DNA of 64,000 bases from Verrucomicrobiales bacterium (GCA_016793885.1 JAEUHE010000236.1:15876-79875); one strand, 5' to 3'. Positions 766-63,689 are shown, counted from the first letter of the stretch. Notes: generated by a model not told the origin, from the sequence alone. Program-made: numbers and translations.

Positions 766-3700
766 ATGCGCACGTTTGTTTCTTGGTGGTCGCTGGTTTC
801 CAGGATGTCACTCATTTTAGGGGGAGCTCTGCTGGGGTCCAGTTCGGGGCTGGCTCAGCAAAACCTGACCAACCTCTTCGTCATTGAGGCGGAAGACTTC
901 AATTATGCCCGGGGCCAGACATTGGCGGTCGCGAACCAGATGCCGTATTTGGGCGGCGCGTTCGCCGGTTTGAACACGGCGGTAATCTCCGTCGATTACA
1001 ACCGGACGGCGGATGCGAGCAGCCCGCTGTACCGCAACGACTCACGCATCCCCATCCTAGCCAGCACGGATCGGGACCGCGAGGCGTGGACGATGACGAC
1101 CAATTTTCGGCTTGGGGCTTTGAAAGGAAACGAGTGGTTCAACTACACGCGCAACCTGCCAGTCGGGCGCTATTTGGTTTACGCCGCGATGTCGCACGGG
1201 GACACCGGGCCGGACCTCTGCCAGGGCGTGTTTTCGACCATTACTTCGATTGCTGCCACCAACACGAGCCAGACCACCTCTCGCAAGGGAACGTTTAAGG
1301 GGCCGGGCACGGGCAGTTACGAAACCAACCGATTGGTCATTCTGCGCGATACCGCCAACCGGGTAGTTATTTTAGACCTCGGCGGCAGCAACCAAACCTT
1401 TCGGTACACCGCCACGAGTGGGTTCCTGGACTATCTCAAGCTGGTGCGTGCTCGTCCGCCGGTGGTTGGAGTGCAGCCTGCGGATGTGACCGTGACTGAG
1501 AACCGGGCGGCGACCTTCTCGCTCGCGATCGGCTCCGATGATCCGGCCGCTATCCAGTGGCAGACCAACGGTGTTAATGTGTTGCGAGGCACCAACACCG
1601 TGCTCAGTTTCGTGCCCAGCTTGGGTATGGACGGCACCCGCGTGCGTTGCGTCCTTACCAACGTGATTGGCACGACTTTGAGCGCAGAGGTGACTTTGCA
1701 CGTAGTGCCCGACACCGGTAAACCCTCGGCCATCCGGGCGCTGAGCTTGGGATCTGACAAGGTTCGGCTGTTCTTTGATGAGGCGGTTTTTCCTCCCGTC
1801 GGCGCGGCGGCCGGGTTCTTTTCGCTCTCCGGGGGAATCGGCGTGACGGCCGCTGAAGCGGGAGCGGATCCGACAACCATCGATCTCACGCTGAGCAGCC
1901 CGTTGACCTTCGATCAGAGCTACACCGTGACGCTCTCGGGGGTTCGTGATATTGCGGCGACCCCGAACACGATTCTCGAGGGGACCCAGATCAGCTTCGT
2001 GGCGGTTCAGTTGGTTGCCACCGATATTGGACGGCCCACCGCGATCGGCACGTTGAACCGAATTCCGGGGGGCTTCGCCGTCTCGGGTGCGGGCAGCGAT
2101 ATCGGAGGCAGCAGCGACCAGTTTGGTTTTAGCTGGGAGCCGCGCTCCGGTGACTTTGACCTGCAGGGGCGCATCGCCAAGGCCACTATCACCGATGCGT
2201 TTCTTCATGTCGGCTTGATGGCGCGCGAGACCTTGGCGACGAATTCGGTCTTCGCCGCCGCGTTGGCCTCCTCCGCCCAGCTGGGTTGTTTCTTCGAGGT
2301 TCGGAAAACCACGGGGACCGCCACCACCGTCAGTTCCGCGGGCACTGGCATGCCGGTGAACTATCCCTACACCTGGCTTCGATTGCGCCGCTCGGGAAAT
2401 CTGTTCAGCGGGTATGCGAGTCTGGACGGCCAGTCTTGGGTGCTCTTGGGAACCAATAGTTTCACCACGATTTCGAATACAGTGCTGGTGGGGCTAGCCC
2501 TTTCGAGTCAATCGAGTTCGGCGGCCAGCGAGGCGGAGCTGCGCGACTACGGCAACACAGTGAGCACCAAGGTCGTCACGGAGTTGCCCAAAGTCGAACG
2601 TTTGGGACCGTCCAGCCGACGCACGGGGCTGGTGTTCTCGGAAATTATGTATCATCCGAGGTCTTCGGGAGCAGGGGCGCCTAATCTGGAGTTTATTGAG
2701 ATCTATAACGCGGGGTCCATTTTCGAGGAGCTCACAGGATTCGAAATCACGGGAGGTATTCAATATCAGTTTCCGGCCGGCTATCGGCTTGAGGCAGGTG
2801 CCTTCCTGGTGATCGCGGCCGATCCGAGCGCTGTTCAAAACGCTTATGGCTTGGCAAATGTGCTCGGACCGTGGACTGGTTCTCTCAACAACTCCGGCGA
2901 CTCCGTTCAACTCAAGGACGCTCGGGGCGCCCTGAAGCTGCAGGTAGATTATGCGACGGTGGCTCCCTGGCCGGTTGGTGCGGATGGTGCTGGTCCCTCG
3001 CTGGTTCTGCGTCGACCCAGCTATGGCGAGGCAGATCCCCGAGCCTGGGCCTCCAGCGAGATGAATGGAGGGACGCCGGGCCAGATGGAGGCAATCCTGC
3101 CCTCGGCTTTGACCTCGATCGTCATCAATGAATTCTTGGCGCACGAGTCGGTCGGACAAGTGGACTTTGTTGAACTTTACAACCACAGCACCGCAGCGGT
3201 GGACCTGTCTGGGTGCTACCTCTCGGACGATCCGACCACAAACAAGTTCAAGATTGCGGCCGGGACCTCGCTGGCCGCGCGCGGGTTGATGTCATTTGAC
3301 AGCGCGCAGTTGGGCTTCGGACTGAATTCGGTCGGGGAGTCTATTTATCTGATCGATTCGACGGGGACGCGGGTGATTGATGCCGTTCGCTTCGGTCCCC
3401 AGGAAAAAGGGGTGAGTCACGGGCGAGTTCCCGATGGCGCGACGGTCATCCGTCCCTTGGCAACGGCCACGCCGGGTGCTTCGAACTCGGGATGGAAACC
3501 CGAAGCGGTCGTGATCAACGAGATCATGTACAACCCGATTACCCAGGATAGCAACGACGAGTATGTCGAGCTGCACAATCGGGGCACCACGCCCGTCGAC
3601 TTGGCGGGCTGGAGTTTTACATCGGGCATTGAATACACCATCCCGACGGGCCGCATTCTGGCCCCCGGTGGGTATCTAGTGATTGCCAAAAATTCCGCCC

Positions 3701-6700
3701 GGTTGCTCTCGAAATATGGACACCTGTCCGCAGCCAACACCGCGGGCGACTATTCGGGCACGCTTGGGAACGGAGGAGACTCCGTGGTTTTGAGCAAGCC
3801 TCAGACCTTCGATGTGGGGACCCCACAAAACCCGGCGACGGTGACCCTGCCCGTGGTTGTGTCGGAAGTGACCTATGGGACGGGAGGCCGCTGGGGCAAG
3901 TGGGCTGATGGGGGCGGTTCCAGTTTGGAGCTGATCGACCCACGGGCCGACCTTCAGCAGGCTGCCAGCTGGGCTGACTCGGACGAGACCACGAAAGCGG
4001 ATTGGACCACGCTCGATTTCACGGGTGTTCTCGACAACGGCAACGGAACCTACACTCCCAACCGACTTTTGATCCTACTCCAGGGGGCAGGGGAGTGTCA
4101 GGTGGACGATGTGGAAGTAATCAAGGTGGGGAGCACCAATCTCCTGGTCAACGGTTCCTTCGAGGCGACGAACACGACGCAGCGGTGGGAGATGACCGGA
4201 ACGCACGGCCTCAGCACCATCGACACGAACAACGGCATCGGCGGGAGCCGGAGCCTGCACATTCGGGCGCAGGGCGATGGGGATACGGGCATCAACAGCG
4301 TTCGCCGCGCCTTGGCGAATGGTCTGGCCAGCGGAAACACGGGGCGCATCAAGGCCAAGGTTCGCTGGATGGCGGGCTGGCCGGAGATCTTACTAAGGCT
4401 CCAGGGCAACTGGCTCGAGCTGGCTGGTAAGATGGACGTCCCTCCCAACCTTGGCTCGCCGGGACAGTTGAACAGCCGTCGGGTGGACAACGCTGGGCCT
4501 GCCATCTACCACGTGAGCCATTCTCCCGCATTGCCGCGGGCGAGCGAGCCGGTGGTGGTGACTTGCCGGGTTTCCGATCCCGATGGAGTGGGCGCGGTGA
4601 CTGTGCGATACCGTTTCGACTCCACGCAGACTCTGACCAACGTCGTCATGCTGGACGACGGAACCGGGGGCGATGAAGTGGCTGGAGACGGGGTTTACTC
4701 GGGCACGGTCCCGGGTCGCGCTTCGGGCATCATGGCGTTCCGAGTGGAGGCTCTGGATGCAGCGGCCGTTCCGGCAGGGACAGTTTTCCCGGCTGGTGCC
4801 CCCGCCCAGGAATGCCTGGTCCGCTTCAATGACGGCATTCCCTTCGGAAGCTTCGGCCACTACCACCTGTGGAGCACGGCCGCGACCGAGAGCGCTCGGG
4901 GAGCTTCCACCGCGTTGAACAACTTTTATCGCGATGCGACGCTGGTTTATGGGAACGGACGCATCATCTACAACGTCGGTTTCCGGGACAAGGGCAGCCC
5001 TTACCACAGTGGGACTGGGGACTTCGCCATCACGGTTCCGGCCGATGATCTGTTGCTGGGTGTTCGCGATCGTGTTTTCGGAGCGACGGGCAATGGCGGA
5101 GCAGAAGCCAGTGGCCTGCGCGGCCGGGTCGCCAACTGGTTCAGTCGCGAGTTGGGCCTGTCCTACCTGCATGCGCATTACATTTTGTTCTACCGGAACG
5201 GGACCCTCCATCAGTCCATCTCCGAGGACGCCGAGCAGCCGAGCAATCCCTATGCGGAGGCTTGGTACCCCTCGGGCGAGGTGGGTGAGTTGTTCAAGAT
5301 TGCGGTGTGGTTTGAGGACAACAGCACCAGCGGGGCCACCGGGGCTACCATGGAGCAGTTCCGTACCACCGGTGGCGTCTTTGACCTCGCGCGGTACCGG
5401 TGGAACTGGCAGCTGCGGGCCAACGACAGCGCCAACAACTACACCAACTTCTTCAAGCTGGTAGAAGCGATCAACGCGTCGGGCGATCACGTGCCCGGAC
5501 TGATGAATATTGCCGACATGGAAGAGTGGATGCGCGTCTTCGCTTACCACCGCATGATGGGTAATTGGGATTCCTGGACCTTCAACGTTGGGCAGAACAT
5601 GTATCTCTACCGTCAGCCAGGCGCTAAATGGGTGCTGCTGCCGTGGGACATCGACTTTGTGCTCGGGTTGGGCAATGGGCCGACGGACGCGCTGTGGGGC
5701 GGACAAGACCCGGTTATGAACACCCGGGTCTATGACAATCCCACCTTCCGCCGCATGCTGTATCGGGCGTTCTTGGATGGGATCTCGGGCCCTATGCAGC
5801 CTTCGCGCTACGCGCCACAGATCGATTCTCGGCGAATCATTCTGAGCAAGAACAAGATCAGCGGCCTGGCCGGGACCGCGGATATTGGGCAGTACATCGA
5901 CCAACGTCGGGAGTATCTGCGAGCGCAGGTGGCCGCCGCGAACGTGATCGGGCTATCCATTACCAACAACGGAGGTAACAACTTTGTCTCGGCCAACTCC
6001 GTGGCGACGATTACCGGCCGCGCTCCTTTTGAAGTGGCCACGATCGAAGTCAACGGGATTCCCTATCCGGTCAAATGGACCGGCTTCACCAGTTACTCCA
6101 TCAGCGTTCCGCTGGCCAACGGGGCCAACGTGCTCACCTTGGTCGGCAAGGACCTTCGGGGGAATGTGGTATCCGGTGGCAGCGACGTCATCACCGTCAC
6201 CTACAACGGTGTTCCGCAGCAGCCCAGCGACTTTGTGGTGATTAATGAGATCCACTACAATCCAACCAGCCCTAGGGGTTCATTTGTCGAACTCTTCAAC
6301 CGCTCCACCACGACCCCCTTTGATCTTTCCGGGTATCGCCTGGATGGATTGAGCTACGTGTTCCCGGCGGGCAGCCTTATCTCCCCCTCGAGCTATATGA
6401 TTCTCGCGAAGAGCCGCGCTGACTTTGCTCTGGCTTACGGCTCCGGGATTACCGTCTGGGACGAGTTCGCTGGTTCGCTGGATTCCGGCGGGGAGCGTCT
6501 GAGCCTGGTCAAGCCGGGTGAGACTCCGGATAACGACCTGGTGATCAATGATGTTCGGTATGACAATGTGCTGCCTTGGCCCGTTCAGGCGGATGGGTTC
6601 GGACCTTCTCTGCAACTCGTCGATGCGACCAAGGACACCTACCGTGTCGCCAACTGGGCGGCGACCGCTACCAACGATCTGAATCGAGTCACCCCAGGGC

Positions 6701-8466
6701 GGACCAATCTCGTGCGTCAGACCCTCCCCGCGTTCCCGCTCGTGTGGATCAACGAGATTTTGCCGAACAACGTGAATGGGGCCACGGACAATGCCGGCGA
6801 TCGGGAGCCCTTCGTTGAACTCTACAACTCCGGCGATGTGGCGGTTGACTTGTCGAGTTTGTATCTCACCGACAGCACGACGAACTTGACGCGATGGCCG
6901 TTCCCGGCGGGAACGACGATTGCCCCCAAGCAGTTCCTGACTCTCTGGACGGATGGCGAGCCCAACGAGACCGCGGCGGGGGCGCTGCACACACCGTTCC
7001 GGATTTCGCCCACCAACGGGTTTGTGGCACTGGTGCGCCTCCAGGGTAATCCGTCGGCTCCGGCGGTCATCGACTACATTCACTATCCGGTCCTTCCTAA
7101 CGACCGGAGCTATGGAAGTTTTCCGGATGGGGAGCCGCGCAATCGGCGGTCCTTCTTCTACGTCACCCAGGGAGGAACCAACAACCCCGTCTATCCGGAT
7201 GTGAACATCACGCTCAACGAGGTGATGGCCTCGAATCAAAAGACCCTTGCAGATCCTGCTACGGGCAGGTTCAGCGACTGGTTTGAGATTTACAATGGTG
7301 GCACCTCGACCGTGGACTTGGCTGGGTATCGGCTGACGGACAACCTGACCAACTCCAACCCATTCACTATCCCGGCTGGCTACGCCATTCCCGCCGGGGG
7401 CTTCTTGCTGGTCTGGGCCGATGGGGATCCCAGCCTGAACCAGGCGGCGCGTCCCGATCTGCATGTGGACTTCCAGCTTTCGGCAGGAGGCGAGGAATTG
7501 GCGTTGATCGCTCCTGATGATCGATTGGTAGATGGCTTCCGATTTCCGGCCCAGGTTACCGACTACAGTATCGGTCGATTCCCAGACGGTGGTCCGTTGC
7601 CTATGGTCTACATGCCGGCTCCGACCCCGCGCAAGAAGAACGACGCGACGAATGCCAACTACCCACCGACCTTGGGTGCCGTTTCTTCGAAAGAAGTGGA
7701 CGAGCAGACTCTGCTGGCATTCACCGTGCAAGCGACGGATCCGAATGTCACCCAACAACTCAGCTACCGGTTGATCAACAACCCTCCGGCGGGTGCCGCC
7801 ATCGATGCCACGACGGGTCGATTCACCTGGACCCCCACTGAGGAGCAGGGCCCGGGCAACTTCTTGGTCACGATTGAGGCTGCTGACAACGGGACTCCTT
7901 CGTTGGCAGCGACCGTGGAGGTGGCTATCCAAGTTCTGGAGGTGAATACCATCCCTGGACTGGTTGCTATTCCTAGTCAGACCGTGGTGGCCGGATTGCC
8001 TCTTCGTTTCACGGCGGTGTCGACGGATTCCGATGTGCCGGAGCAGATCGTGACCTTCGCACTGGCCGGTGGTAGCCCGCTGGGGGCAGGTATCAATCCG
8101 GACACTGGCGACTTCAACTGGACGCCTTCGGCCGAACAGATTGGCGAATACACCATGACGATAGTGGTCACCGATCAGGGCGTGCCGCCTCTGTCTCGAA
8201 GCGTGAACGTGTCGATCACGGTCAAAGCCCCGGAAGTGGTAGTTCCGCCGCAGCTGAGTGTTGCAACCGCGGAGGATGGTTCGCTCACCCTGTCTTTTGG
8301 TGCGGAGAATGGAATTCGCTACCAAGTTCAGTACAGGGATCGACTCGACGAAGCCGCCTGGGCACCTTTTGCTGAGGTGCTGGGTGTCGGAGCCCAGGCT
8401 ACCTTGAGCGGGATCGATCCTCGTGATGAACCGGAGCGTTACTACCGGGTGGTCGTCCAACCATAA
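766..8466 (+). CDS. giant secreted surface protein: CBM-like N-terminus, Ig-like repeat, 3 LTD, CotH kinase-like core, 3 LTD, cadherin-like repeats
   Basis: Track ORF 634..8466. I prefer ATG 766 because it gives a signal-peptide-like start (MRTFVSWWSLVSRMSLILGGALLGSSSGLAQQ). Six lamin-tail-domain signatures (xVINE[IF][ML] ... [FY][VI]E[LI][YH]N ... DL[SA]G ... L[ST]D) start near 2630, 3115, 3505, 6235, 6740 and 7205. A CotH-like core lies at ~4790-5940 (YHLWSTAATE, NWDSWTFNVGQNMYLY, LLPWDIDFVLG). An Ig I-set-like repeat lies at ~1470-1710 and cadherin/dystroglycan-like repeats at ~7650-8230. The tail ends ERYYRVVVQP. Confidence 0.85.
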   Translation: MRTFVSWWSLVSRMSLILGGALLGSSSGLAQQNLTNLFVIEAEDFNYARGQTLAVANQMPYLGGAFAGLNTAVISVDYNRTADASSPLYRNDSRIPILASTDRDREAWTMTTNFRLGALKGNEWFNYTRNLPVGRYLVYAAMSHGDTGPDLCQGVFSTITSIAATNTSQTTSRKGTFKGPGTGSYETNRLVILRDTANRVVILDLGGSNQTFRYTATSGFLDYLKLVRARPPVVGVQPADVTVTENRAATFSLAIGSDDPAAIQWQTNGVNVLRGTNTVLSFVPSLGMDGTRVRCVLTNVIGTTLSAEVTLHVVPDTGKPSAIRALSLGSDKVRLFFDEAVFPPVGAAAGFFSLSGGIGVTAAEAGADPTTIDLTLSSPLTFDQSYTVTLSGVRDIAATPNTILEGTQISFVAVQLVATDIGRPTAIGTLNRIPGGFAVSGAGSDIGGSSDQFGFSWEPRSGDFDLQGRIAKATITDAFLHVGLMARETLATNSVFAAALASSAQLGCFFEVRKTTGTATTVSSAGTGMPVNYPYTWLRLRRSGNLFSGYASLDGQSWVLLGTNSFTTISNTVLVGLALSSQSSSAASEAELRDYGNTVSTKVVTELPKVERLGPSSRRTGLVFSEIMYHPRSSGAGAPNLEFIEIYNAGSIFEELTGFEITGGIQYQFPAGYRLEAGAFLVIAADPSAVQNAYGLANVLGPWTGSLNNSGDSVQLKDARGALKLQVDYATVAPWPVGADGAGPSLVLRRPSYGEADPRAWASSEMNGGTPGQMEAILPSALTSIVINEFLAHESVGQVDFVELYNHSTAAVDLSGCYLSDDPTTNKFKIAAGTSLAARGLMSFDSAQLGFGLNSVGESIYLIDSTGTRVIDAVRFGPQEKGVSHGRVPDGATVIRPLATATPGASNSGWKPEAVVINEIMYNPITQDSNDEYVELHNRGTTPVDLAGWSFTSGIEYTIPTGRILAPGGYLVIAKNSARLLSKYGHLSAANTAGDYSGTLGNGGDSVVLSKPQTFDVGTPQNPATVTLPVVVSEVTYGTGGRWGKWADGGGSSLELIDPRADLQQAASWADSDETTKADWTTLDFTGVLDNGNGTYTPNRLLILLQGAGECQVDDVEVIKVGSTNLLVNGSFEATNTTQRWEMTGTHGLSTIDTNNGIGGSRSLHIRAQGDGDTGINSVRRALANGLASGNTGRIKAKVRWMAGWPEILLRLQGNWLELAGKMDVPPNLGSPGQLNSRRVDNAGPAIYHVSHSPALPRASEPVVVTCRVSDPDGVGAVTVRYRFDSTQTLTNVVMLDDGTGGDEVAGDGVYSGTVPGRASGIMAFRVEALDAAAVPAGTVFPAGAPAQECLVRFNDGIPFGSFGHYHLWSTAATESARGASTALNNFYRDATLVYGNGRIIYNVGFRDKGSPYHSGTGDFAITVPADDLLLGVRDRVFGATGNGGAEASGLRGRVANWFSRELGLSYLHAHYILFYRNGTLHQSISEDAEQPSNPYAEAWYPSGEVGELFKIAVWFEDNSTSGATGATMEQFRTTGGVFDLARYRWNWQLRANDSANNYTNFFKLVEAINASGDHVPGLMNIADMEEWMRVFAYHRMMGNWDSWTFNVGQNMYLYRQPGAKWVLLPWDIDFVLGLGNGPTDALWGGQDPVMNTRVYDNPTFRRMLYRAFLDGISGPMQPSRYAPQIDSRRIILSKNKISGLAGTADIGQYIDQRREYLRAQVAAANVIGLSITNNGGNNFVSANSVATITGRAPFEVATIEVNGIPYPVKWTGFTSYSISVPLANGANVLTLVGKDLRGNVVSGGSDVITVTYNGVPQQPSDFVVINEIHYNPTSPRGSFVELFNRSTTTPFDLSGYRLDGLSYVFPAGSLISPSSYMILAKSRADFALAYGSGITVWDEFAGSLDSGGERLSLVKPGETPDNDLVINDVRYDNVLPWPVQADGFGPSLQLVDATKDTYRVANWAATATNDLNRVTPGRTNLVRQTLPAFPLVWINEILPNNVNGATDNAGDREPFVELYNSGDVAVDLSSLYLTDSTTNLTRWPFPAGTTIAPKQFLTLWTDGEPNETAAGALHTPFRISPTNGFVALVRLQGNPSAPAVIDYIHYPVLPNDRSYGSFPDGEPRNRRSFFYVTQGGTNNPVYPDVNITLNEVMASNQKTLADPATGRFSDWFEIYNGGTSTVDLAGYRLTDNLTNSNPFTIPAGYAIPAGGFLLVWADGDPSLNQAARPDLHVDFQLSAGGEELALIAPDDRLVDGFRFPAQVTDYSIGRFPDGGPLPMVYMPAPTPRKKNDATNANYPPTLGAVSSKEVDEQTLLAFTVQATDPNVTQQLSYRLINNPPAGAAIDATTGRFTWTPTEEQGPGNFLVTIEAADNGTPSLAATVEVAIQVLEVNTIPGLVAIPSQTVVAGLPLRFTAVSTDSDVPEQIVTFALAGGSPLGAGINPDTGDFNWTPSAEQIGEYTMTIVVTDQGVPPLSRSVNVSITVKAPEVVVPPQLSVATAEDGSLTLSFGAENGIRYQVQYRDRLDEAAWAPFAEVLGVGAQATLSGIDPRDEPERYYRVVVQP

Positions 8467-8562: not shown

Positions 8563-8801
8563 TTCCTCCCTACCTTGGTGACGATTCGGGGTAGGGAGAG
8601 ACTTGACCACGAAGCGGTCCGATGAGGTTTATAGTTCTGATTTCCGCTCGAGCCCTGATCGGCCCGAGGTGATCGAACCTGTTAGGAGCTGCGTCGGGGA
8701 GAGCCAGGGTGTTGACGATCGCCTCTCGGCCCTCGCTGGGTGGCCCCTTTTATTATCCTGAGCCTGGGGCAGGAGTGGGCTCGACAGAGTCTCGCCCTAC
8801 C
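8563..8801. repeat. family-A palindromic-end element (reverse orientation relative to 55445..55614), with junction hairpin
   Basis: It ends with GGGCTCGACAGAGTCTCGCCCTACC (8777-8801). The other end, GGTAGGGAGAGACT...CCGCTCGAGCCC (8589-8656), is split by a ~40-bp insertion. The internal sequence aligns by eye with the reverse complement of 55470-55590 (CCCCAGGCTCAGGATA...GGGCC.ATCAGGGCTCGA). A CTCCCTACC-N15-GGTAGGGAG hairpin sits at 8566-8598. Confidence 0.7.
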
Positions 8802-18481: not shown

Positions 18482-19924
18482 TCACCCCTGATCCAGCCGG
18501 GATCTGAGTTCTGAAGGGAGGGCAATCTCGCTTTGAACTTTGAGCCATCGCAGCGCGCCGGGATGGTCCTGGAACTCGCCCTCGAGTTGGGCTTCGAAGG
18601 CGGCGTGGAGGATTGCTCCCATTTCCTTTCCAGGCGACATGCCCAAGGCGAGCAAATGCCGACCGAGCAGGATTCCCTTGGGCGCCTGGTGCTGGAGGCA
18701 GAGCTGCCCGGCCTTGGCCCGCAGGTCCACCAGGGTTTGGGGAAGGACCGCCGGTCGCGGGGGGCGGCCGAGACAATCGGCCGCCATGACGACACAGAGG
18801 CCCTCGATCGTCTCCGGCTGGAGCCGATTGGCCAACCTTCGCACCGCGCGATCAGTCGAGGCTTGCAGGTGTGCCAGGTGGTTGATCACCAGGGGAAGCA
18901 CTCGGGCCACAATGTCATTGGGAGCTTTGAGGCGCTCAAGAAATGTCTGGGCCAGCGGACCGCCGGCTGCCTCGTGTTCCGGCGAGACAATTCGCATTTT
19001 TCCGTGGCGGAGTTCCTGCCGGGTCGTGCTGGGTTTTCCGAAGTCATGGGCGAGAATGGCCAGCATCCAGGTCACCCGCGATGCTTCGTCGGCCCGCTGC
19101 CATTCCGGCAGTGCGACCATGGCATCGCAGCAATGGCCCGTGTGAACGAACACATCGCCCTCCGGATGCCACTCTGGATCCTGGGGCACACTCCGCAGTT
19201 GGGCCACTTCGGGGAAGTGCTCAATCCATCCGGTATCACTTAGAAAACGGAGACCAGCTGAAGGTCGAGTGCTTCGACTGGCCCACTTAAACCATTCGTC
19301 GCGGATTCGTTCGGGCGCGAGTTCCGTACAGCTGGGGGCGATCTGTCGGCACAGTTCGATAGTTTCCGGCGCCGGGGAGAGATCGAATCGGGAGACGAAC
19401 TGCATGCCGCGCAGGACTCGCAGCGGATCCTCGAAGAACGCGTTGCTGGTATGGCGAAGAATGCGTTTTTCGAGATCGGCCAACCCGCCGTGGCAATCGA
19501 TGATCTGACGTTGGCGTGGATCAAACAGCAGGGCGTTGACGGTGAAGTCGCGTCGGGCGGTGGCTTCGGCGAGATCGAGGCTGGGATCGAAGCTGGTTTG
19601 GAATCCTTTGTGCCCGGTCCCGACCTTGGAGTCGCGGCGCGGGAGTGAAAAGTCGAAAGTCTGGCCGGGACGCGTGGTGAGCTTGATCACACCGAACGAC
19701 TTGCCGACCAGGTCGAGTTTCCCGAAAGGGGCCAGGAGGCGTCCGAGCGAATCGAAGCTGTGGCCGAAGACCTCGACATCGAAGTCCTTGCAGTCGCGAC
19801 CGATCAGCGCATCGCGAACGCCGCCGCCGACAACATAGGCTCGTTCGAGGCCGGGAGTGTTGCAGAGGATCTCGCGCAGGTCCGCGGGCAGCGAAATATC
19901 GATCGAATGCGTCAGGCACGGCAT
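18482..19924 (-). CDS. cca: CCA-adding tRNA nucleotidyltransferase / poly(A) polymerase family protein with HD domain
   Basis: The 480-aa ORF has the nucleotidyltransferase head motif YVVGGGVRDALIGRDCKDFDVEV, an RRDFTVNAL motif and the HD-domain motif ILAHDFGKP. ATG checked at 19922-19924. Confidence 0.8.
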   Translation of the reverse strand: MPCLTHSIDISLPADLREILCNTPGLERAYVVGGGVRDALIGRDCKDFDVEVFGHSFDSLGRLLAPFGKLDLVGKSFGVIKLTTRPGQTFDFSLPRRDSKVGTGHKGFQTSFDPSLDLAEATARRDFTVNALLFDPRQRQIIDCHGGLADLEKRILRHTSNAFFEDPLRVLRGMQFVSRFDLSPAPETIELCRQIAPSCTELAPERIRDEWFKWASRSTRPSAGLRFLSDTGWIEHFPEVAQLRSVPQDPEWHPEGDVFVHTGHCCDAMVALPEWQRADEASRVTWMLAILAHDFGKPSTTRQELRHGKMRIVSPEHEAAGGPLAQTFLERLKAPNDIVARVLPLVINHLAHLQASTDRAVRRLANRLQPETIEGLCVVMAADCLGRPPRPAVLPQTLVDLRAKAGQLCLQHQAPKGILLGRHLLALGMSPGKEMGAILHAAFEAQLEGEFQDHPGALRWLKVQSEIALPSELRSRLDQG

Positions 19925-20041
19925 TGGCGCCGATTAAACCCGGGCCGAGCCAGGGTAGCAAGCGTGTGCGAGGCTCACCTGCTAGGACGGAACTGATTTT
20001 TTCCGAGTGAGGGCAGCGGGTTTTCCCTCCGGGGAGCCGGG

Positions 20042-20352
20042 GCTCTGGTCTTCACCTCCCAAAATGGGTACTAAACAAGTTGTAGGGGATCTTCACGTGT
20101 TCGCGTGAGTTCCTGAACCCGAAACCGAGAACGCGCAGGGTTCAAAGAGATTACGGGGCGTGGAGCGCAGCGACACCCCCGGTCTTTCGGCTCCTAAATA
20201 AACAGCACCCTGAAAGGCGTGCCACCCGTCGGCCAATGGACTGACGAACTGAGGAGGTTCCTTAAAGCGGTTGACGCAAGTCTCAGAAGCCAGTGGCATC
20301 GCTGCGCGATGCTCCGTACTTTCAACAGTTCCGGGGGTGCGAGCACCCCCGG
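20042..20352. repeat. ~310-bp composite repeat, copy 1 (left flank of the RHS cassette); part of a ~390-bp element with imperfect terminal inverted repeats (20054..20444)
   Basis: It aligns by eye along its whole length with 23043..23353; most positions are identical, with a few 1-2 nt indels. Its ends, ACCTCCCAAAATGGGTACTAAACAAGTTGT (20054-20083) and the reverse complement of 20415-20444, match at 24 of 30 positions (hand count). Confidence 0.75.
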
Positions 20353-20557
20353 CTATTCTCTTTGAACCCTGCGGGTTCGAGCCCTTCCGACAAGTTGGGA
20401 AACACCGGTATCAGCCCACTTGTGTGGTCCCCATTTTTGGAGGTAAAGATCAGAGTCACACCCCGCTAGAACTAGGGTGTGACTCACGGTTAATCTGCCG
20501 TTAACCCCTAGTTTATGGGATTGTTTGATCCGGGTGAGCTGGCAGGCTCAGGAGAGA

Positions 20558-21934
20558 ATGTTCGATACCACTCCAGTGAACGATCGCAGGCGCGAGGCGG
20601 CCGAGAGCCTCCGCTTTGGCGGGTGTTCCTCGACGGCGTGGAGCCTTGGGTTCCTCTCCCTTCTCTTCATACTCTCCGGACTCATTCCAGCGGTTGCAGC
20701 CGAATCGTCTTCTGCGCACTCCCTGACGACGAGGGTTTTGTATGACGCCGATGGCCAGCGGGTGGGGAAACAGACGGTTCGATGGGATGAGGTTCAGCAG
20801 CGATGGCGAACGAACCTGACGCGATTCGTTATCGACCCGCAGCATCCGAGTGGCTATGCGCAGCGACTGGCTGAGCAGGGGGAGGGTGGGGAAGGGGACC
20901 GTGCCTACCTTCATGGCGTACATCCCATCACGGAAGTGGGGCGAGATGGAGCGCGTTACGCGGTGGTAGATGGACATCACTCCGTGCGAGGGCAAGTGGA
21001 GGAACGAGGAGAGCTCGCTGGACTACGTAATTACGATGCTTTTGGCGGTGAGTTGCCTGGCGGAATCGCGACGAAATGGGAGACGGATTGCGAAGCGGCC
21101 GGTTATGCCGGCGAGTTCTATGACTCGGCCAGCGGGTTACTGGATCTGCGCGCCCGGCACTATGAACCGCATCTCGGCCGATTCCGAACGATGGATTCCT
21201 ATGAGGGCCGACCGGAGCTTCCGGCGGGTCTCCACAAATACAGCTATTGCGAGAATGAGCCGGTGAATCATACCGATCCGAGCGGACATGAGTCCCTGGG
21301 AATGCAGTCTGTCACCTCGGGTGGTATCGGGACCGTGGCTCGGATGGCGCTTCCGACCGTCGGCCGAGCTTTCGTTCATTCACGGAATCTGATCGGTAGA
21401 TCCCTGGTGCAGGCGACGAGACTGCGGAGGGGCGATCCGATGGAGTATTTAACCGGCCGCGGAGTCGGTGCACTTGCTGGTCTCGCCACGGTAGCGACGG
21501 GGCTGGGGTTGGGACTTGCTTTTGAGGATGATGACGAGACTGAAGGAAGGATTCTTTATCGAGGGATGTCCGGCCAGTCCATGCCAGACTTACTGCCTGA
21601 TGGGGAAACCCAAGTTGGGTCGTATCTTGGGATTCGTCCGAAGGATATTGAAAATGTTCGCGATGGTATGGTGATGCCAACGGATCAGGGCCTCTCGGTT
21701 ACCCCGAATAACCCTTCACTCATGCACCCGTTCATTCTAGGAAAAATCGCCAACGGGAAAGCTCGAGTTTGGGGCATATACGAGGGCCTCGTAGATCCTC
21801 GTTTGACGGTCAGGCCTGACCCCAAAGACTTGGAAGGGCATGCTTTTATAGGAGTTTCTGCCCCGATGCCGGTCGCTGAGTTTAAGAGGCGGATCTATGA
21901 GACGCAGCCGCTGTGGTCACCATTAACACCGTGA
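20558..21934 (+). CDS. short secreted RHS-repeat-core protein with variable C-terminal toxin domain (polymorphic toxin)
   Basis: Track ORF 20525(TTG)..21934. ATG 20558 is preceded by AGGAGA. A hydrophobic signal/TM segment is present (WSLGFLSLLFILSGLIPAVAA). YD repeats: YDADGQRVGK, YDAFGGEL. RHS core end: YAGEFYDSASGLLDLRARHYEPHLGRFRTMD ... YSYCENEPVNHTDPSGH (DPSGH at 21275-21289). A ~214-aa C-terminal domain of unrecognised family follows. Confidence 0.8.
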   Translation: MFDTTPVNDRRREAAESLRFGGCSSTAWSLGFLSLLFILSGLIPAVAAESSSAHSLTTRVLYDADGQRVGKQTVRWDEVQQRWRTNLTRFVIDPQHPSGYAQRLAEQGEGGEGDRAYLHGVHPITEVGRDGARYAVVDGHHSVRGQVEERGELAGLRNYDAFGGELPGGIATKWETDCEAAGYAGEFYDSASGLLDLRARHYEPHLGRFRTMDSYEGRPELPAGLHKYSYCENEPVNHTDPSGHESLGMQSVTSGGIGTVARMALPTVGRAFVHSRNLIGRSLVQATRLRRGDPMEYLTGRGVGALAGLATVATGLGLGLAFEDDDETEGRILYRGMSGQSMPDLLPDGETQVGSYLGIRPKDIENVRDGMVMPTDQGLSVTPNNPSLMHPFILGKIANGKARVWGIYEGLVDPRLTVRPDPKDLEGHAFIGVSAPMPVAEFKRRIYETQPLWSPLTP

Positions 21935-21952
21935 AGTGAAGGAGGGGAGAGA

Positions 21953-22462
21953 ATGGCTATACTGTTTATGCTGGTTGCGGAATGTGGCTCCGACGAACCC
22001 AGTGCCCATCGGATCGTGGAGCACTTTCTTCAGGTGAGTTGGGTGCTTTCAGACGGTTCGCCCATGTTCTTCAAATCAGACTCGAACGACGTATGGTGCC
22101 GAGGCGGTGTGTTTTGGTGCAGTGTCTTTCCCGACGGAGTGAGCGCGAGTGGGGCAAGCCAACGCATCACAAGCGATGCCCTGAGAGTTGAAATTGTAAA
22201 GCGGGGCTATCAGGAATTGAGAAGGGTGGATCTCTTTCGTTTTGCGCTCATTGGTTGGGAGGCTGCAACACAGTGCGATTTGGATGAAATCCTGCAGGCT
22301 ATGGTTGATCCTGACTCGTTGCCGCGGGGTTTGGTGATCAACGATGATCTGTGGTCAAAACTTGGCTCCCCGCGCGCGTTTGAGCGGTTTGGTCAGCGCT
22401 CCTGGTGGAGACCATTGAGGGATCAGGATTACCTCAACTTGGTGAGCACTCGCAGGCGGTGA
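21953..22462 (+). CDS. putative cognate immunity protein (paralogue 1)
   Basis: The 169-aa ORF starts 18 nt after the toxin stop and is preceded by GAAGGAGG. It is clearly paralogous to the next ORF: MAILFMLVAECG / MAFLFMLAAECG, FPDGVSASG / IPDGVSAGG, FRFALIGWEAA / FRFALVGWEAA, SWWRP / TWWRP. I recognise no family. Confidence 0.6.
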   Translation: MAILFMLVAECGSDEPSAHRIVEHFLQVSWVLSDGSPMFFKSDSNDVWCRGGVFWCSVFPDGVSASGASQRITSDALRVEIVKRGYQELRRVDLFRFALIGWEAATQCDLDEILQAMVDPDSLPRGLVINDDLWSKLGSPRAFERFGQRSWWRPLRDQDYLNLVSTRRR

Positions 22463-22504
22463 AGGGTCTGTCGTGTGTTTCACGCTGAGAAGGAGAGAAT
22501 CACC

Positions 22505-23005
22505 ATGGCTTTCCTATTCATGCTGGCGGCGGAGTGCGGACAACATCGGAGGTCTGCCGAGCTCATTGTTCAACACTTCGAGAGCATCCGATTCGAGTTG
22601 TCGGATGGCAATAGTATTGGGTTTAGCCACGATCCAGGGGCTATCTGGACCCGGGGAGACGTGATCTGGTGCTGGGCGATTCCGGACGGAGTCAGCGCGG
22701 GTGGACTCCCACAACGGGTCTGCACGACAGCTGCAAGAGTAGAACTTACAAAACTTATCCATGCGGAGCTAAGATTGCTTAAGGGATTCCGGTTTGCGTT
22801 GGTGGGATGGGAAGCTGCTTTAGGCCCGGACTGGAACGAGATCGTGAAAGAGGTAGCGACTCCCGAGTTGCTACCGCCTGGGCTTATCATTGACGACGAT
22901 CTCTACAGGACTTTGGGTTGTCCTAACGGGTTCGAGCCCTTCGGGGAGGGAACTTGGTGGCGACCCGTGTCCGACGAGGTTTATACCCAGATCATCGCAT
23001 TCTAA
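22505..23005 (+). CDS. putative immunity protein (paralogue 2)
   Basis: Track ORF 22475..23005. ATG 22505 aligns with the start of paralogue 1 and is preceded by AAGGAGAG. Confidence 0.6.
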   Translation: MAFLFMLAAECGQHRRSAELIVQHFESIRFELSDGNSIGFSHDPGAIWTRGDVIWCWAIPDGVSAGGLPQRVCTTAARVELTKLIHAELRLLKGFRFALVGWEAALGPDWNEIVKEVATPELLPPGLIIDDDLYRTLGCPNGFEPFGEGTWWRPVSDEVYTQIIAF

Positions 23006-23042
23006 GGACTTCCCTCCGGGGGAGGCGGGAAAGCGGTAGAGG

Positions 23043-23353
23043 GCTCTCATCTTCGCTTCCAGAAATGGGGGCTACACAAGTTGTAGGGATCCTCACGTGT
23101 TCGCGTGAGTTCCTGATGCCGAAGCCGAGAACCCGTAGGGTTCACAGAGATTATACGGGGCGTGGAGCGTAGCGACACCCCCGGTCTGTCGGCTCCTGAG
23201 TAAATAGCACCCTGAAAGGCGTGCCAACCGTCGGCCAATGGACTGACGAACTGATAGATTCCTTGAAGCGGTTGACGCAAGTCTCCGAAGCCAGTGGCAT
23301 CGCTGCGCGATGCTCCGTACTTTTAACAGTTCCGGGGGTGCTGGCACCCCCGG
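23043..23353. repeat. ~310-bp composite repeat, copy 2 (right flank of the RHS cassette)
   Basis: It is a direct repeat of 20042..20352, offset by almost exactly 3.0 kb and carrying the same order of sub-blocks: CACGTGTTCGCGTGAGTTCCTGA, GGCGTGGAGCG.AGCGACACCCCCGGTCT, AGCACCCTGAAAGGCGTGCCA, GGCCAATGGACTGACGAACTGA, GCGGTTGACGCAAGTCTC, GCCAGTGGCATCGCTGCGCGATGCTCCGTAC, CCGGGGGTGC.AGCACCCCCGG. Confidence 0.75.
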
Positions 23354-23509
23354 AGGCGTCAAAAAACACGGAGCATCGCGCAGCGATGCCACCGGCTTCT
23401 GGAGCTTGTTTCACGGCTATTCAACAAACAAGAGCCTTTCGTCAACCTACGCGCCTGCGGGTGGCACGCCTTTCAGGGTGCTGTTCCATAGGGGGATGAC
23501 AGACCGGGG
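23179..23509. repeat. ~330-bp nested imperfect palindrome centred on CCGGGGGTGCTGGCACCCCCGG (23332-23353)
   Basis: Four arm blocks recur in inverted order on both sides of the centre: CCCCGGTCTGTC / GACAGACCGGGG, AGCACCCTGAAAGGCGTGCCA / GTGGCACGCCTTTCAGGGTGCT, GGCATCGCTGCGCGATGCTCCGT / ACGGAGCATCGCGCAGCGATGCC, and the central hairpin. Confidence 0.7.
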
Positions 23510-23681
23510 AGGCAGGTGCCAGAGGGACCCGAGTTATGAGTTGAAGTGAGTTATGAGTTGCCCAAGTGGGATCGTCCGGGCACGGACGATCAAAGCGGGG
23601 GCGAATACTCACGCTCCCAACTCGTCACTCATCATTCATGACTGCTTACGTCGTCTCCTACAGTTTCAACCCCCTCGTGGA

Positions 23682-24752
23682 TCACTCGGCGAAGCGGGCG
23701 TGGATGGCTTTCGCGATGGTGGCGAAGGCTTGGGCCGGGGCTTCCTTCGGAGCGGAAACCGTCACGGGCGTTCCTTGATCGCCACCGATCCGAATCGCGG
23801 TGTAGAGGGGGATCTCACCTAGGAACGGAAGATGAAGTCGCTCGGCCTCCGTTTTCCCGCCGCCATGACCGAAAATCTCCAGTCGCTCGTTGTTAGGGGT
23901 CACGAAATAGCTCATGTTCTCCACGAGCCCCAGAATGGGCACGTTCACTTTCTCGAACATCGCGATCCCTTTGCGGACCACTCCCAATGAAGCCTCCTGA
24001 GGCGTGGTGATCACCACCCCGCCATCCAACGGCACGGTCTGACACAAGGTCAGCTGGGCATCGCCCGTGCCGGGGGGGAGGTCGACGAGCAGGTAATCCA
24101 GGTCGCCCCAAGCTACCGAAAAAATGAACTGCTGGATCGTTTTGACGATCATGGGCCCACGCCATATGACAGGGGCGTCGCCGTCGAGCAGGAAGCCCAT
24201 GCTCATGAGCTTCACGCCGTGGTTGGAGACGGGCACGAGCTTCTCCTCGTCATTCACCGTCGGACGTTCTTTGACGCCCATCATGAGGGGAATGCTCGGG
24301 CCGTAGATGTCGCAATCCAGAAGTCCAACCTTGAGTCCCAGTTGGCTCAGCGCACAGGCGAGGTTGACGGAGCAGGTGGACTTGCCCACGCCGCCCTTGC
24401 CGCTCGCCACCGCGATGATGCGCTTGATGCCCGCCACCCGGCTCTGATTCGACCAGGGGTTTGGACCGGCAGCAGCTTGGGCTGTTCCCGCGGCAGGCGA
24501 TGGGCCGGCGGGCAGTTTGACTTCGATGTGGGTATGGGAAATGCCGGGAATCGACTTCAGCACGCGTTCGCATTCCGCTTTCAGCTGGGCCGCAATCTCG
24601 GCGTTCGGAGTCGTGAGCGCGAGCAGCAGACTGACGGCTCCCTGGTTGGCCGCTACGTTCTTGACCAGGCCAAAGGAAACGATGTCGCGGGAGTAACCAG
24701 GATATTTAACTGCTTTGAGCGCCTCGGTGATGGTGGAGGGATTCAAGTCCAT
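23682..24752 (-). CDS. apbC: Mrp/NBP35/ApbC-family Fe-S cluster carrier ATPase
   Basis: Track ORF 23682..24812. ATG 24752 (checked) gives MDLNPSTITEALKAVKYPGYSRDIVSFGLV, a DUF59/MIP18-like N-terminal domain. The deviant Walker A motif is VASGKGGVGKST. The start lies 25 nt downstream of the desulfurase stop. Confidence 0.85.
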   Translation of the reverse strand: MDLNPSTITEALKAVKYPGYSRDIVSFGLVKNVAANQGAVSLLLALTTPNAEIAAQLKAECERVLKSIPGISHTHIEVKLPAGPSPAAGTAQAAAGPNPWSNQSRVAGIKRIIAVASGKGGVGKSTCSVNLACALSQLGLKVGLLDCDIYGPSIPLMMGVKERPTVNDEEKLVPVSNHGVKLMSMGFLLDGDAPVIWRGPMIVKTIQQFIFSVAWGDLDYLLVDLPPGTGDAQLTLCQTVPLDGGVVITTPQEASLGVVRKGIAMFEKVNVPILGLVENMSYFVTPNNERLEIFGHGGGKTEAERLHLPFLGEIPLYTAIRIGGDQGTPVTVSAPKEAPAQAFATIAKAIHARFAE

Positions 24753-24777
24753 GGTGCGGTAGTCTAGTCTTAGGCGG

Positions 24778-26043
24778 TCAGTGGGCGGCTTTACCAGAGA
24801 CGGCGGCGGCATGCGCTGAAAACGACACCCCTCGGCCGGTTGGATTGATGACGGAATCGATCACTCCGCTCTCGAACTCCTCCCACATGGGCGACATGGC
24901 CCGCAGTTTGGTGACGATCTTGGAGAAGGATTCCACGACGTAGTCAACCTCCTCCTCCGTGTTGTCCTGGCCCAAAGTCATGATGATGTTTCCCTGCGCC
25001 AGGGCATGGTCGAGTCCAATGGCTGCCAACACATGCGAGATCTTCAGCGATTTGCTCACACAACTTGACCCGCTGGCCACGGCGATTCCAGCGACATCCA
25101 GGCTGAGCAGCTGTCCTTCGCCTTCAATAAACTCAGTGCTCAGGTTCAGGTTGGTGGAGATCCGCTCGGGCCCGGGCTCCGGCCCGTTGAGCTTGATGTA
25201 AGGAATCTTCTCTTTGAGCCCCTTCCATAGACGAGCTTGGAGGCGCGCCGTGTGGGCTGCGCGGGCAGGCATTTCGCGCACGGCAATCTCGGCGGCCAGG
25301 CCGCCACCAACGATTGCGGGCACATTTTCGGTTCCGGCGCGGCGTCCGCCTTCTTGGACGCCACCATGCAGGATGCTCACGAGTCGGGCTTTCCGATTCC
25401 GATACAGGATCCCGACGCCCTTGGGCCCGTAGAAACGATGCGGGGAAAAGGAGACCAGGTTGGCTCCCATGGCCTGAACATCGATGGGTAACCATCCGGC
25501 GCTGGCTTCGCAATCGACGTAGAACGGGATCGACTTCTCATTCAACAGCCGGCCGATCTCGGCGATGGGCTGGATCGTGCCAATGTCGTGGTTCACGTGG
25601 TGAACCGCCACCAGCACGGTCTTGTCGGTGAGCGCGGCAGCGACATCCGCCGGTTTGATCCGGCCTTCGGCATCGACCGGCACGCGGGTGCAGGTCCAAC
25701 CCTGTTTCTCCAGAAACTCCACCGAATTGACGACGGAGGGATGTTCGGTTGCGGAAATCACCAGGTGCTTGCCGCGACGCTCGTTCGCATAGGCAACGCC
25801 TTTGATGGCCAAGTTCGCCGACTCGGTGCCATCCGAGGTGAAGAAAATCTCTTCCTCGCTTTCGGCGTTGATCATCGCCGCGATGCGCGCGCGCGCCTTC
25901 TTGAGTGCATCCCGAACCTGAAGTCCGTAGTGATGGAGCGAGCTGGGATTGCCGAAGGCCTCGGTGAAAAAGGGTTTCATCTCCTCGAAAACCTCGGGGA
26001 GGAGGGGCGTTGCCGACTGATGATCGAGAAACACGTGTTTCAT
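24778..26043 (-). CDS. iscS: group I cysteine desulfurase (NifS/IscS type, PLP-dependent)
   Basis: The 421-aa ORF reads MKHVFLDHQSATPLLPEV...FGNPSSLHHYG. A class-V aminotransferase pattern is present. The catalytic-loop Cys is in ASGSSCVS. The C-terminal MSPMWEEF resembles the IscS LSPLWEMY tail. Confidence 0.85.
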   Translation of the reverse strand: MKHVFLDHQSATPLLPEVFEEMKPFFTEAFGNPSSLHHYGLQVRDALKKARARIAAMINAESEEEIFFTSDGTESANLAIKGVAYANERRGKHLVISATEHPSVVNSVEFLEKQGWTCTRVPVDAEGRIKPADVAAALTDKTVLVAVHHVNHDIGTIQPIAEIGRLLNEKSIPFYVDCEASAGWLPIDVQAMGANLVSFSPHRFYGPKGVGILYRNRKARLVSILHGGVQEGGRRAGTENVPAIVGGGLAAEIAVREMPARAAHTARLQARLWKGLKEKIPYIKLNGPEPGPERISTNLNLSTEFIEGEGQLLSLDVAGIAVASGSSCVSKSLKISHVLAAIGLDHALAQGNIIMTLGQDNTEEEVDYVVESFSKIVTKLRAMSPMWEEFESGVIDSVINPTGRGVSFSAHAAAVSGKAAH

Positions 26044-27232: not shown

Positions 27233-27322
27233 TGGAGAGTTAAGATTTAGTTGAGGAGAGGGTGTAATTTGAAGTGGGGGAGATTCAGGTTGAATTGAGC
27301 GGGTAACTCCCTGCGATGGTGC

Positions 27323-27574
27323 GGGCTTTCAGCCCTTAGCGCGTGTCGGGTGAAGAATCCTGGGGTTGTCACCCCAGGCTGGGATGGTGCTGGGCCTGTG
27401 GCCCGCCGACTCCAACACGACTGATCCATTCCATTCGAACCTGGGCTCACTGGTCTAGGCTGGCTTTGGTATTGGGTCGAAGGCTCGTCGGGCTTGAGCA
27501 TCAACGGTGCGTCCTATCCCAGCCTGGGGTGACAACCCCAGGTTACGATCCACCTCCCATCCAGGGCTGAAAGC
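27323..27574. repeat. family-D inverted-repeat element (~250 bp)
   Basis: Left arm: GGGCTTTCAGCCC...CCTGGGGTTGTCACCCCAGGCTGGGA (27323-27384). Right arm: TCCCAGCCTGGGGTGACAACCCCAGG...GGGCTGAAAGC (27517-27574). Both blocks in each arm are reverse complements of the partner blocks. Confidence 0.65.
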
Positions 27575-27633
27575 TCGGCATCAGGCTGCCGAGTCCGTCC
27601 CGCCTTTACCACCTCTTTAACCCGGAATTGATC

Positions 27634-28431: not shown

Positions 28432-28654
28432 GTTAAGGGAAGGAGAGTAAGGAAGGCTGCCGCCTCACGAAAGTGCAAAGTGGGGGGGATCGCTGGAGTG
28501 CGAGGTGGTAGGTGGTAGATGGTAGGTGGTTCGGCAGTTGGTGAACCACACAAATGCTTTTCCATCCGAGTCATCCGAGAAATCCGTGGTTACAACTGCC
28601 ATTTTCAGGATAAACCTCGTCGGATCGATCTTCGATCAAAGCCCGCCTTACCGC

Positions 28655-40892: not shown

Positions 40893-41355
40893 GACACAAT
40901 CCTAGCCAAGGTGTTCTCTCATCCAAGGCGTGCCGTCGGATCCCCCTTCGGTTGTGAGTTTCCTCACGCGCTGCAGGCTCCTAGCTTCCAGCAACACCAC
41001 TTTGCTCCTCTTCAGGCCTCTTAGGCGATTCCATGCAGGCACATTCATTGAACTTAACGATAACCTTCTATCCATTATTCGGCTCGAAAACTCAAAGCTT
41101 TATGGTGACTCTTGGCAAGTCCCGGTGCGCAGGCGTTCGACGACTTCCATACCGAAGATTCGCGCTCCCAGTTCCACCCGCTCAACATCAGCTTTCTTAA
41201 AGAAATTAAAAGTAAAACGTTACGGACGTGGTGTGCTAGGAAATAATTTCCTAGCCTCGCGCGGCGGTGTTACTTGTGGGGAATTGGCTGGCCCGCACTA
41301 CGATTGTGGCGTCGTCCGTCCGCGGACGGTTCCCCAGCCCTGGAGCGCAGCGGGT

Positions 41356-63660: not shown

Positions 63661-63689
63661 CTCTGCCCTCAAAGGCAGAGCGCTTGGTG

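Follow-up and report, generated by a model that had tools for sequence, protein, structure and literature searches.

The DNA analysed here is a stretch of 64,000 nt from a Verrucomicrobiales bacterium (GCA_016793885.1, JAEUHE010000236.1:15876-79875), referred to below as the window, with all positions counted from its first letter. It carries a 3-kb cassette, consisting of a small gene with an RHS core and two putative immunity genes, between two direct repeats of some 310 nt, and the question which this arrangement raises is whether the repeats serve to move the cassette or have come to lie beside it in some other way. The initial annotation, made from the sequence alone, favoured the first answer and proposed RecA-mediated excision, duplication or exchange of the module. 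We consider it probable instead that the direct repeats are sister copies of element E, a non-coding and lineage-restricted repeat of an uncultured Verrucomicrobiales clade which resembles a miniature inverted-repeat transposable element (MITE), and that the cassettes are turned over through homology of the Rhs core. The features of the locus are listed in Table 1, and the loci, contigs and proteins used for comparison are given by L and P numbers.

The direct repeats are real and non-random. Window positions 20042-20352 and 23043-23353, each 311 nt long, align from end to end in the same orientation over 313 columns with 89.5% identity (BLAST E value 1e-111) and three indels of 1-2 nt, and their starts are 3000-3002 nt apart. 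The initial annotation had described the pair as whole-length repeats in the same orientation, offset by about 3.0 kb and composed of at least seven sub-blocks in the same order, and all of this was borne out; the sub-blocks are perfect-match runs separated by mismatches (37, 27, 24, 21, 20, 17, 17 and 16 nt, the longest being 37 nt). Self-BLAST of the window returned these two direct copies and no third. The claim that the repeats enclose only the RHS-tip gene and two immunity candidates also held, the remaining content being the rest of E copy 1 and a conserved leader.

Copy 1 was said to continue into an element of about 390 bp with terminal inverted repeats (TIRs), which was essentially right for the element but not for its size. 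The element, E, is 413 nt long and its TIRs match at 84% over 38 nt. Further inside lies an inner inverted repeat (20129-20153 and 20354-20378, 92%) and between its halves a central palindromic hairpin, designated H, the stem of which is invariant across 13 copies. Copy 1 has a fold z-score of -8.0. E contains no coding sequence, the open reading frames (ORFs) which overlap it being short (50-77 aa) and non-conserved.

A scan of public metagenomes identified 13 contigs carrying the 22-nt core of E. The full 413 nt were present at 80-87% identity in L003, L004 and L005, while the other contigs held parts cut by contig ends; taken over the 13 contigs E was 80-89% identical, and its full-length and partial matches fell at 77-88%. 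The same ends of E were found in L001, L003, L004, L005, L008 and L009. Beyond E there was nothing common to any two of the 13 contigs (the longest shared alignment was 407 nt), and none of them encoded an RHS or immunity homologue. E was also present in five genomes at the locus between the genes for the CCA-adding tRNA nucleotidyltransferase (CCA) and the Fe-S cluster carrier ApbC. Since E is dispersed, non-coding and bounded by terminal inverted repeats, we regard it as MITE-like, and its length is within the limit of about 600 bp usual for such elements. No recombinase, integrase or transposase domain was detected in any ORF of the window with Pfam or NCBIfam, and both statements of the initial annotation, that one repeat belongs to an element with terminal inverted repeats and that a recombinase gene is lacking, therefore stand, the latter for the window.

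The locus of relatives was reached through proteins closely homologous to RHS and to the CCA enzyme, which led to four related assemblies. Comparison with these related strains, which the initial annotation had advised, showed that the locus varies structurally and that the CCA-apbC site is occupied by a variable array of RHS tips and immunity genes. L014 and L017 carry, in this order, E in the direct orientation, E(+), RHS470 with imm130, an AAA_14/DUF4143 gene, RHS458/483 with its immunity gene and an inverted E fragment. In L015 and L022 the order is E(+), the window-type cassette (RHS458 with ORFs of 169 and 166 aa), DUF4143, RHS476 with ORFs of 168 and 85 aa, and an inverted E fragment. 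Every cassette, including the internal ones, has the same leader followed by the same RHS head of approximately 780 nt. The left boundary in L014, L017, L018 and L022 is formed by E positions 1-343 on the + strand, the positional orthologue of copy 1, from which 73 nt including the right terminal repeat are missing. At the right boundary only an inverted piece of E remains, which comprises positions about 343 to 235 and abuts the apbC stop codon. Both deletions in the relatives are clean, 73 nt on the left (L014 6433/6439 against window 20386-20463) and about 263 nt on the right (L014 12097/12116 against window 23415-23677), and the loss of outer E parts with preservation of the hairpin-rich centres fits selective retention of terminator-like hairpins. 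No copy of E was found at the boundaries of the internal cassettes of the relatives. In the outgroup L019 the CCA gene (79% identical) has different neighbours and no array, and the single mini-RHS cassette of the outgroup lies elsewhere, with no E, no copy of a second repeat family (B, described below) and no flanking repeats. Within the RHS array of L015 the AAA_14/DUF4143 gene is split by an IS21-like element (3418-6834; rve integrase and AAA_22/IstB-like ATPase), the flanks of which share about 6 nt when placed on the L014 reference, which a target duplication would produce; this element has no similarity to E.

Copy 2 was correctly reported to continue into a large palindrome (23179-23353 against 23332-23509, arms about 75-84% complementary), and these comparisons separate it into parts with different histories. 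Positions 23332-23414 are orthologous to the inverted fragment beside apbC in L014, L015 and L017 (89-93% identity), and the window keeps more of this inverted copy than the relatives do, namely up to position 137, together with 168 nt of unique sequence. The direct arm of copy 2 (23043-23331) and its B-type flank had no counterpart in L014, L015, L017 or L022, and the homology of the window to L015/L022 ends a few bases at most from the stop codon that closes the last immunity ORF. Between the left arms of copies 1 and 2 the identity is 90.6% (9.4% divergence), compared with 86-89% between either copy and the dispersed copies in L004/L005 and about 81% (80.8%) between copy 1 and its positional orthologues in the relatives. 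Copies 1 and 2 also have bases found in no other member of the family, for example GAAGCCAGTGGC and CACGTGTTCGCGTGAG. Given these shared unique bases and the highest identity, the two copies appear to be sisters which arose in the lineage of the window after its split from the relatives. They have diverged roughly half as far as neutral sites have between the window and its nearest relatives; at such sites the identity to L014 is 74.2% at third codon positions of CCA and 79.7% in the intergenic region. The palindrome has arms that match each other at only about 77%, which argues for a chimera and against a fresh hairpin duplication. An ancestral perfect foldback element of about 620 nt was considered and dropped, because full-length 413-nt copies with a distinct right end are present in L003, L004 and L005.

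As reconstructed from these alignments, the ancestral locus had the order CCA, E(+), cassette(s), E(-), apbC, that is, an array bounded by inverted copies of E. Copy 1 is placed as the ancestral left copy, which is full length in the window, and the right arm of the copy-2 palindrome as the inverted member of the ancestral pair. To this old inverted copy the direct left arm of copy 2, which is closest to copy 1, is taken to have been joined later, exactly at H, as an addition specific to the window. As H is palindromic, oppositely oriented copies of E share it in direct orientation, and the resulting chimera (a1-H-a1') would be best explained by recombination or template switching at H. By one route an extra E(+) would first have lain downstream of the cassette, and an H-to-H deletion would then have removed the sequence beyond it, where the relatives carry the AAA_14/DUF4143 gene and a further cassette. 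By the other, a broken end at the right-hand H would have primed on the left-hand H and copied the left arm. The bracket of direct repeats would then be a by-product of repeat dynamics at a recombination-prone site. Between the chimera and apbC the window has a spacer (23510-23677) in which GAGTTATGAGTTG occurs twice, together with a short hairpin (GGGATCGTCCGGGCACGGACGATC) and, further along, a partial inverted match, and which may be another small inserted repeat.

How the cassettes themselves are exchanged could be seen from L022 and L014, which are 97.9% identical over 4.5 kb (CCA, E, leader and RHS head) as far as the equivalent of window position 21241. Beyond this position the toxin tip and the immunity genes are wholly different, and identity returns, at 98.1%, some 30 nt short of where the last immunity ORF ends. 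The exchange thus has its left breakpoint where the conserved 780-nt RHS head stops and its right one just downstream of the immunity genes, whereas E sits within the conserved flank and not at a breakpoint. The swap between L022 and L014 is evidently a classical case of Rhs C-terminal displacement, or effector-immunity replacement by homologous recombination, for which models are summarised in PMC5361080. The conserved RHS head (approximately 780 nt) and the conserved downstream sequence would recombine, and the tip and immunity genes would be swapped together. The window-type cassette, at 88.6-88.9% identity to that of L015/L022 (L015 88.9%), is diverged to the same extent as the CCA gene (88.8% to L014) and so appears to have been inherited vertically. 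In L015/L022 this cassette is followed by the DUF4143/AAA_14 gene, without a right-hand repeat.

E was found next to a second repeat, B, of which the reference copy at 62026-62124 is a 99-nt palindrome with 41-nt arms that are 95% complementary. Sequences of B were also present at 23011-23042 and in L004 (401-541), L001 (2310-2349) and L010 (1-105). On its left, E is preceded by ...GTAGAGGGCT both at window copy 2 and at the L014 copy beside CCA, and at several independent sites it is this same point of the arm of B, immediately after ...GTAGAGGGCT, that E adjoins, which suggests site-specific insertion of one repeat into another. In L004 the right flank of E begins with AGAGGGCTAC..., and in L005 E is flanked by ACAGGGGT on the left and by ACAGGGG on the right, where the contig ends, giving ACAGGGG(T) as a candidate 8-bp duplication. 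The half-sites in L004, window copy 2 and L014 are consistent with a target AGAGGGCT inside B. No target duplication was seen at window copy 1 or in L003. This small sample suggests an 8-bp target duplication at a preferred site within B. Because B accompanies E at independent sites, the left flank of copy 2 (about 30 nt), which is itself repeat B, was uninformative as to whether copy 2 originated by new transposition or by local copying.

A number of observations weigh against our reading of E and of the history of copy 2. In 185,579 species-representative genomes there were no matches to the 22-nt core of E, and a 19-mer from the TIR gave only 14 chance matches in unrelated taxa, from which we take the E family to be lineage-restricted. 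No autonomous transposon with ends matching those of E, such as the cognate insertion sequence that a MITE should have, was found in those genomes or in the window. The internal core of E (positions about 87-337), which is bounded by a 28-nt inverted repeat of its own, is better conserved than the termini in the alignment of 13 copies, a pattern that a plain MITE does not usually show and that could point to a sequence-specific function. The count of E copies covers the window, the metagenome contigs and the fetched loci. The case for target duplication consists of one copy cut by a contig end together with half-sites. Finally, the scenario of a junction at H is inferred from anatomy, and no intermediate form, for example with E(+) ahead of an internal cassette, was found in the four related arrays.

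The mobility device originally proposed, in which RecA would act on the direct repeats of about 310 nt to excise, duplicate or exchange the 3-kb module, has in its favour that the repeats are in the same orientation and enclose only the cassette, that the locus is structurally variable among relatives and that no recombinase gene is nearby. The minimum homology for RecA is usually quoted as roughly 25 nt, and with their longest perfect block of 37 nt the repeats could in principle support deletion. We nevertheless think this explanation unlikely: the same cassette is present in L015/L022 without the right-hand repeat, the exchange breakpoints that were observed lie away from the repeats, and the outgroup cassette has no flanking repeats at all. 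Moreover, copies which are 9.4% diverged represent an old duplication, across which the cassette was kept and the copies were not homogenised, so that the repeats have long coexisted undeleted, and neither a deletion junction nor a solo hybrid copy was found in any fetched locus. The mobility idea is thus unsupported, though not disproved. The combination of a hyper-abundant repeat with an invariant locus, which the initial annotation had named as speaking against mobility, was not what we found. An empty or deletion form of the locus was also looked for; L019, in which synteny differs, was uninformative, and the short Logan contigs L023 and L024 end inside E. If, on the other hand, the whole RHS array were cargo between inverted E copies, moved into the CCA-apbC site as a composite-transposon-like unit by a transposase acting in trans at the outer TIRs, one would expect the array to be bounded by inverted copies, as it is in the window and in all four related arrays, and to differ from its surroundings, as it does in G+C content at third codon positions (0.60 against 0.71-0.75 in the neighbours). 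The outgroup CCA gene with its other neighbours and no array is in line with this, and there are precedents, in that a 439-bp Acinetobacter MITE flanks class 1 integrons and the 502-bp MITE-297 flanks a 76-kb region, MITEAba12 being a further such element (PMC6382973). In no genome, however, does the right-hand E keep its outer terminal repeat, positions 1-136 having been lost here and 1-234 in the relatives, so that intact outward TIRs are not present at both ends, and no target duplication flanks the composite as a unit. We found no second site occupied by the array and no transposase among the window ORFs or through the TIR-based genome search, and the rearranged synteny of the outgroup leaves no empty site for comparison. 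We therefore hold such an origin of the array to be improbable.

Very stable folds (z-scores of -8 and -16) and strongly conserved internal hairpins would also be expected if E were a structured non-coding RNA gene, a cis-regulatory RNA or a terminator module, the copies of which regulate the cassette and neighbouring operons. Terminator-like hairpins are present on both strands between the convergent units (23296-23314 on the + strand and 23390-23372 on the - strand), and it is exactly the hairpin-bearing part that the relatives keep beside apbC. Against this, Rfam 15 gave no match at the gathering score over the whole window, relaxed thresholds yielding only artefacts of the miRNA long-hairpin type, and with RNAalifold none of the 48 predicted pairs in 13 copies was compensatory and the covariation term was unfavourable. 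Copies of E furthermore occur in both orientations and in unrelated contexts and break assemblies as repeats do, while a terminator role of the remnants is compatible with the MITE explanation and is no rival to it. An RNA function as the reason for the family thus seems very unlikely, although hairpin-rich remnants may have been kept as terminators between the convergent cassette and nifU-nifS-apbC transcripts. Three linked ideas can finally be taken jointly: that MITEs bound the RHS array as a mobile unit, now or in the past, that H is a recombinase-free hot spot at which H-to-H joins would delete, duplicate or capture cassettes, with the a1-H-a1' chimera at 23043-23509 as a footprint, and that E targets the 8-bp AGAGGGCT in B. 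As a combination we regard these as doubtful. An integron cassette with attC (IntI, attC of 57-141 nt) was rejected, since no integrase is encoded in the window ORFs, the size is wrong and the internal cassettes have no E. What the evidence favours remains a MITE-like repeat E, sister copies of which bracket a cassette that turns over by Rhs-core homology.

Table 1. Features at the CCA-apbC locus of the window and the observations on which each assignment is based.
Feature	Position	Strand	Basis and remarks
CCA-adding tRNA nucleotidyltransferase gene, conserved left boundary	18482-19924	-	Pfam PolyA_pol and NCBIfam CCA; 94% protein identity to P0013; syntenic in L014, L017, L018 and L022
Left-end remnant of B abutting E copy 1	20021-20042	+	12-nt deletion relative to the L014 orthologue; end and intergenic alignments
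E copy 1, full length, MITE-like	20043-20455	+	Full-length matches in L003/L004/L005 with unrelated flanks; first 310 nt (20043-20352) are copy 1 of the initial annotation
Left terminal inverted repeat of E copy 1	20043-20080	+	Pairs with 20418-20455; conserved among family ends
Central palindromic hairpin H of copy 1	20331-20352	.	Sequence CCGGGGGTGCGAGCACCCCCGG, then CTATTCTCTT on the + strand; terminator-like
Right terminal inverted repeat of E copy 1	20418-20455	-	Inside the 73-nt stretch (about 20386-20463) deleted in relatives
Cassette leader	20464-20557	+	29-mer TAACCCCTAGTTTATGGGATTGTTTGATC at 20502-20530
Conserved mini-RHS head (signal/transmembrane segment, YD repeats, Rhs core)	20558-21241	+	About 82% identity before each cassette of the relatives; holds the left exchange breakpoint
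Variable C-terminal tip of mini-RHS protein, presumed toxin	21242-21934	+	L022/L014 homology ends here; no Pfam/PDB match
Immunity candidate 1, 169 aa	21953-22462	+	No known family; present in L015 and L022
Immunity candidate 2, about 166 aa	22505-23005	+	Paralogue of candidate 1; L015/L022 homology ends just past the stop codon
Left-end sequence of B abutting copy 2, CCCTCCGGGGGAGGCGGGAAAGCGGTAGAGGGCT	23011-23042	+	88% match to 62019-62050; L014 shows this flank at its CCA-side copy
E copy 2, left arm only (positions 1-287)	23043-23331	+	With H, copy 2 of the initial annotation; absent from all related loci; derived bases common to copy 1
Hairpin H, junction of direct and inverted arms	23332-23353	.	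Repeat comparison
Older inverted E copy (positions 287 to 137, reverse complement)	23354-23509	-	23332-23414 orthologous to the inverted fragment beside apbC in L014, L015 and L017
Genome-unique spacer before the apbC stop	23510-23677	.	168 nt; no match in any fetched locus; absent in relatives
apbC/mrp Fe-S cluster carrier gene, conserved right boundary	23682-24812	-	92-94% DNA identity to relatives

Insertion sequences which target repetitive extragenic palindromic sequences and bacterial interspersed mosaic elements (REP/BIME) insert in other palindromic repeats, and E resembles them in that, wherever it was seen beside B at several independent sites, it is flanked by one and the same point of the terminal arm of B. 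It differs in that its target is a 99-nt lineage-specific palindromic repeat, that no transposase was identified and that informative sites are few. With the bacterial MITEs E shares a non-coding sequence of a few hundred base pairs, TIRs and dispersed copies, and, as in MITE pairs, two copies bound a block of accessory genes. In contrast to those elements, no parent insertion sequence of E is known, its core is nested or modular, being better conserved than the ends and provided with its own inverted repeat, its insertions are apparently at one site inside palindromic repeat B, and it is hosted by an uncultured Verrucomicrobiales lineage. With its right-hand copies truncated, the pair is no functional composite today.

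The RHS gene of the cassette has its true start at ATG 20558 and encodes 458 aa which are 100% identical to P0001, from a metagenome-assembled genome listed by NCBI as 'Verrucomicrobiales bacterium'. Look-ups of exact sequences gave no record for the CCA protein, the long RHS ORF or ApbC of the window, nor for P0005. The sole NCBIfam match was TIGR03696 (Rhs_assc_core) at aa 170-255 (E value 1.5e-17), and the motif ...PVNHTDPSGH..., where homology between cassettes stops, precedes the variable tip, so that a core domain stands directly before a variable C-terminal tip as in known Rhs arrays. The toxin and immunity architecture described in the initial annotation is in agreement with this one match and stays putative. 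Searches of Pfam, NCBIfam and PDB sequences gave no family match for the tip or for the two small ORFs, and the terms toxin and immunity are accordingly read from the architecture. The tip and the downstream ORFs are swapped together between L014 and L022, consistent with a putative immunity role, and the two immunity candidates are 48.5% identical to each other (tblastn).

Displacement of Rhs C-termini and arrays of orphan toxin/immunity modules were described by Jackson 2009 and Koskiniemi 2014 (PMC3967940), here as cited in PMC5361080, and displacement of type VI secretion system effector-immunity modules is known from Vibrio cholerae (PMC5361080). Like those arrays, the present locus has a conserved core segment before each variable tip and immunity module, it differs between close strains, and its breakpoints lie in the core and in the downstream flank. 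In contrast to the orphan arrays, each module at this locus forms an entire small gene of about 458-483 aa that brings its own start, signal/transmembrane segment and invariant leader, and not a start-less orphan behind an rhs gene of about 1400 aa. The mini-RHS genes (window 20558-21934 and P0002-P0007) are all complete at 458-483 aa, with their own start and an N-terminal segment resembling a signal or transmembrane sequence, and with few YD repeats before the core motif they fall short of the length of a full Rhs shell. Of the shell and delivery partners usual at the head of such arrays, neither a full-length rhs gene (about 1400 aa) nor a vgrG or PAAR gene was seen in the window, and no further RHS sequence was found there by tblastn. 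In the leader the 29-mer is 100% identical before all 8 distinct cassettes of the relatives, the coding regions of which are only 58-88% alike. This invariant leader is probably a promoter or operator; it contains no match to the sigma-70 consensus. A similar motif (CTAGGGTCTGA…CCCCTAGTTTGGACGATTGTTCGAT) precedes a 39%-identical mini-RHS gene in the outgroup (L039, about 5915-5975).

Other repeats were noted in the window. A tandem repeat with a period of 350 nt (47145-47971; 2.4 copies, 93% matches) overlaps an ORF at 47240-47728 which has no Pfam match, and just upstream of it (47117-47151) there is a solo piece resembling the inner inverted repeat of E. Short dispersed repeats common to intergenic parts of the window and to metagenome contigs are located at 27260-27599, 28554-28595, 41286-41354, 42219-42282, 8603-8637 and 63686-63716, the first of which matches L010 4535-4869 at 78%. 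The lineage seems to be rich in small repeats.

To our knowledge mobile repeats have barely been described in this phylum, and what is new here are two undescribed families of small repeats, E and B, and the invariant leader of the mini-RHS genes. On the reading that we consider probable, the locus diversifies by replacement of the tip and immunity genes through homology of the RHS core, as in Proteobacteria, and not by repeat-mediated excision. Should palindrome-centred recombination or MITE-bounded mobility prove true, for which the evidence is anatomical, they would provide a recombinase-free route to reshape toxin arrays, and targeting of B by E would likewise be a case of one repeat directed into another. 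E, B and the leader are useful for annotation in this lineage and for explaining the breaks in its assemblies.

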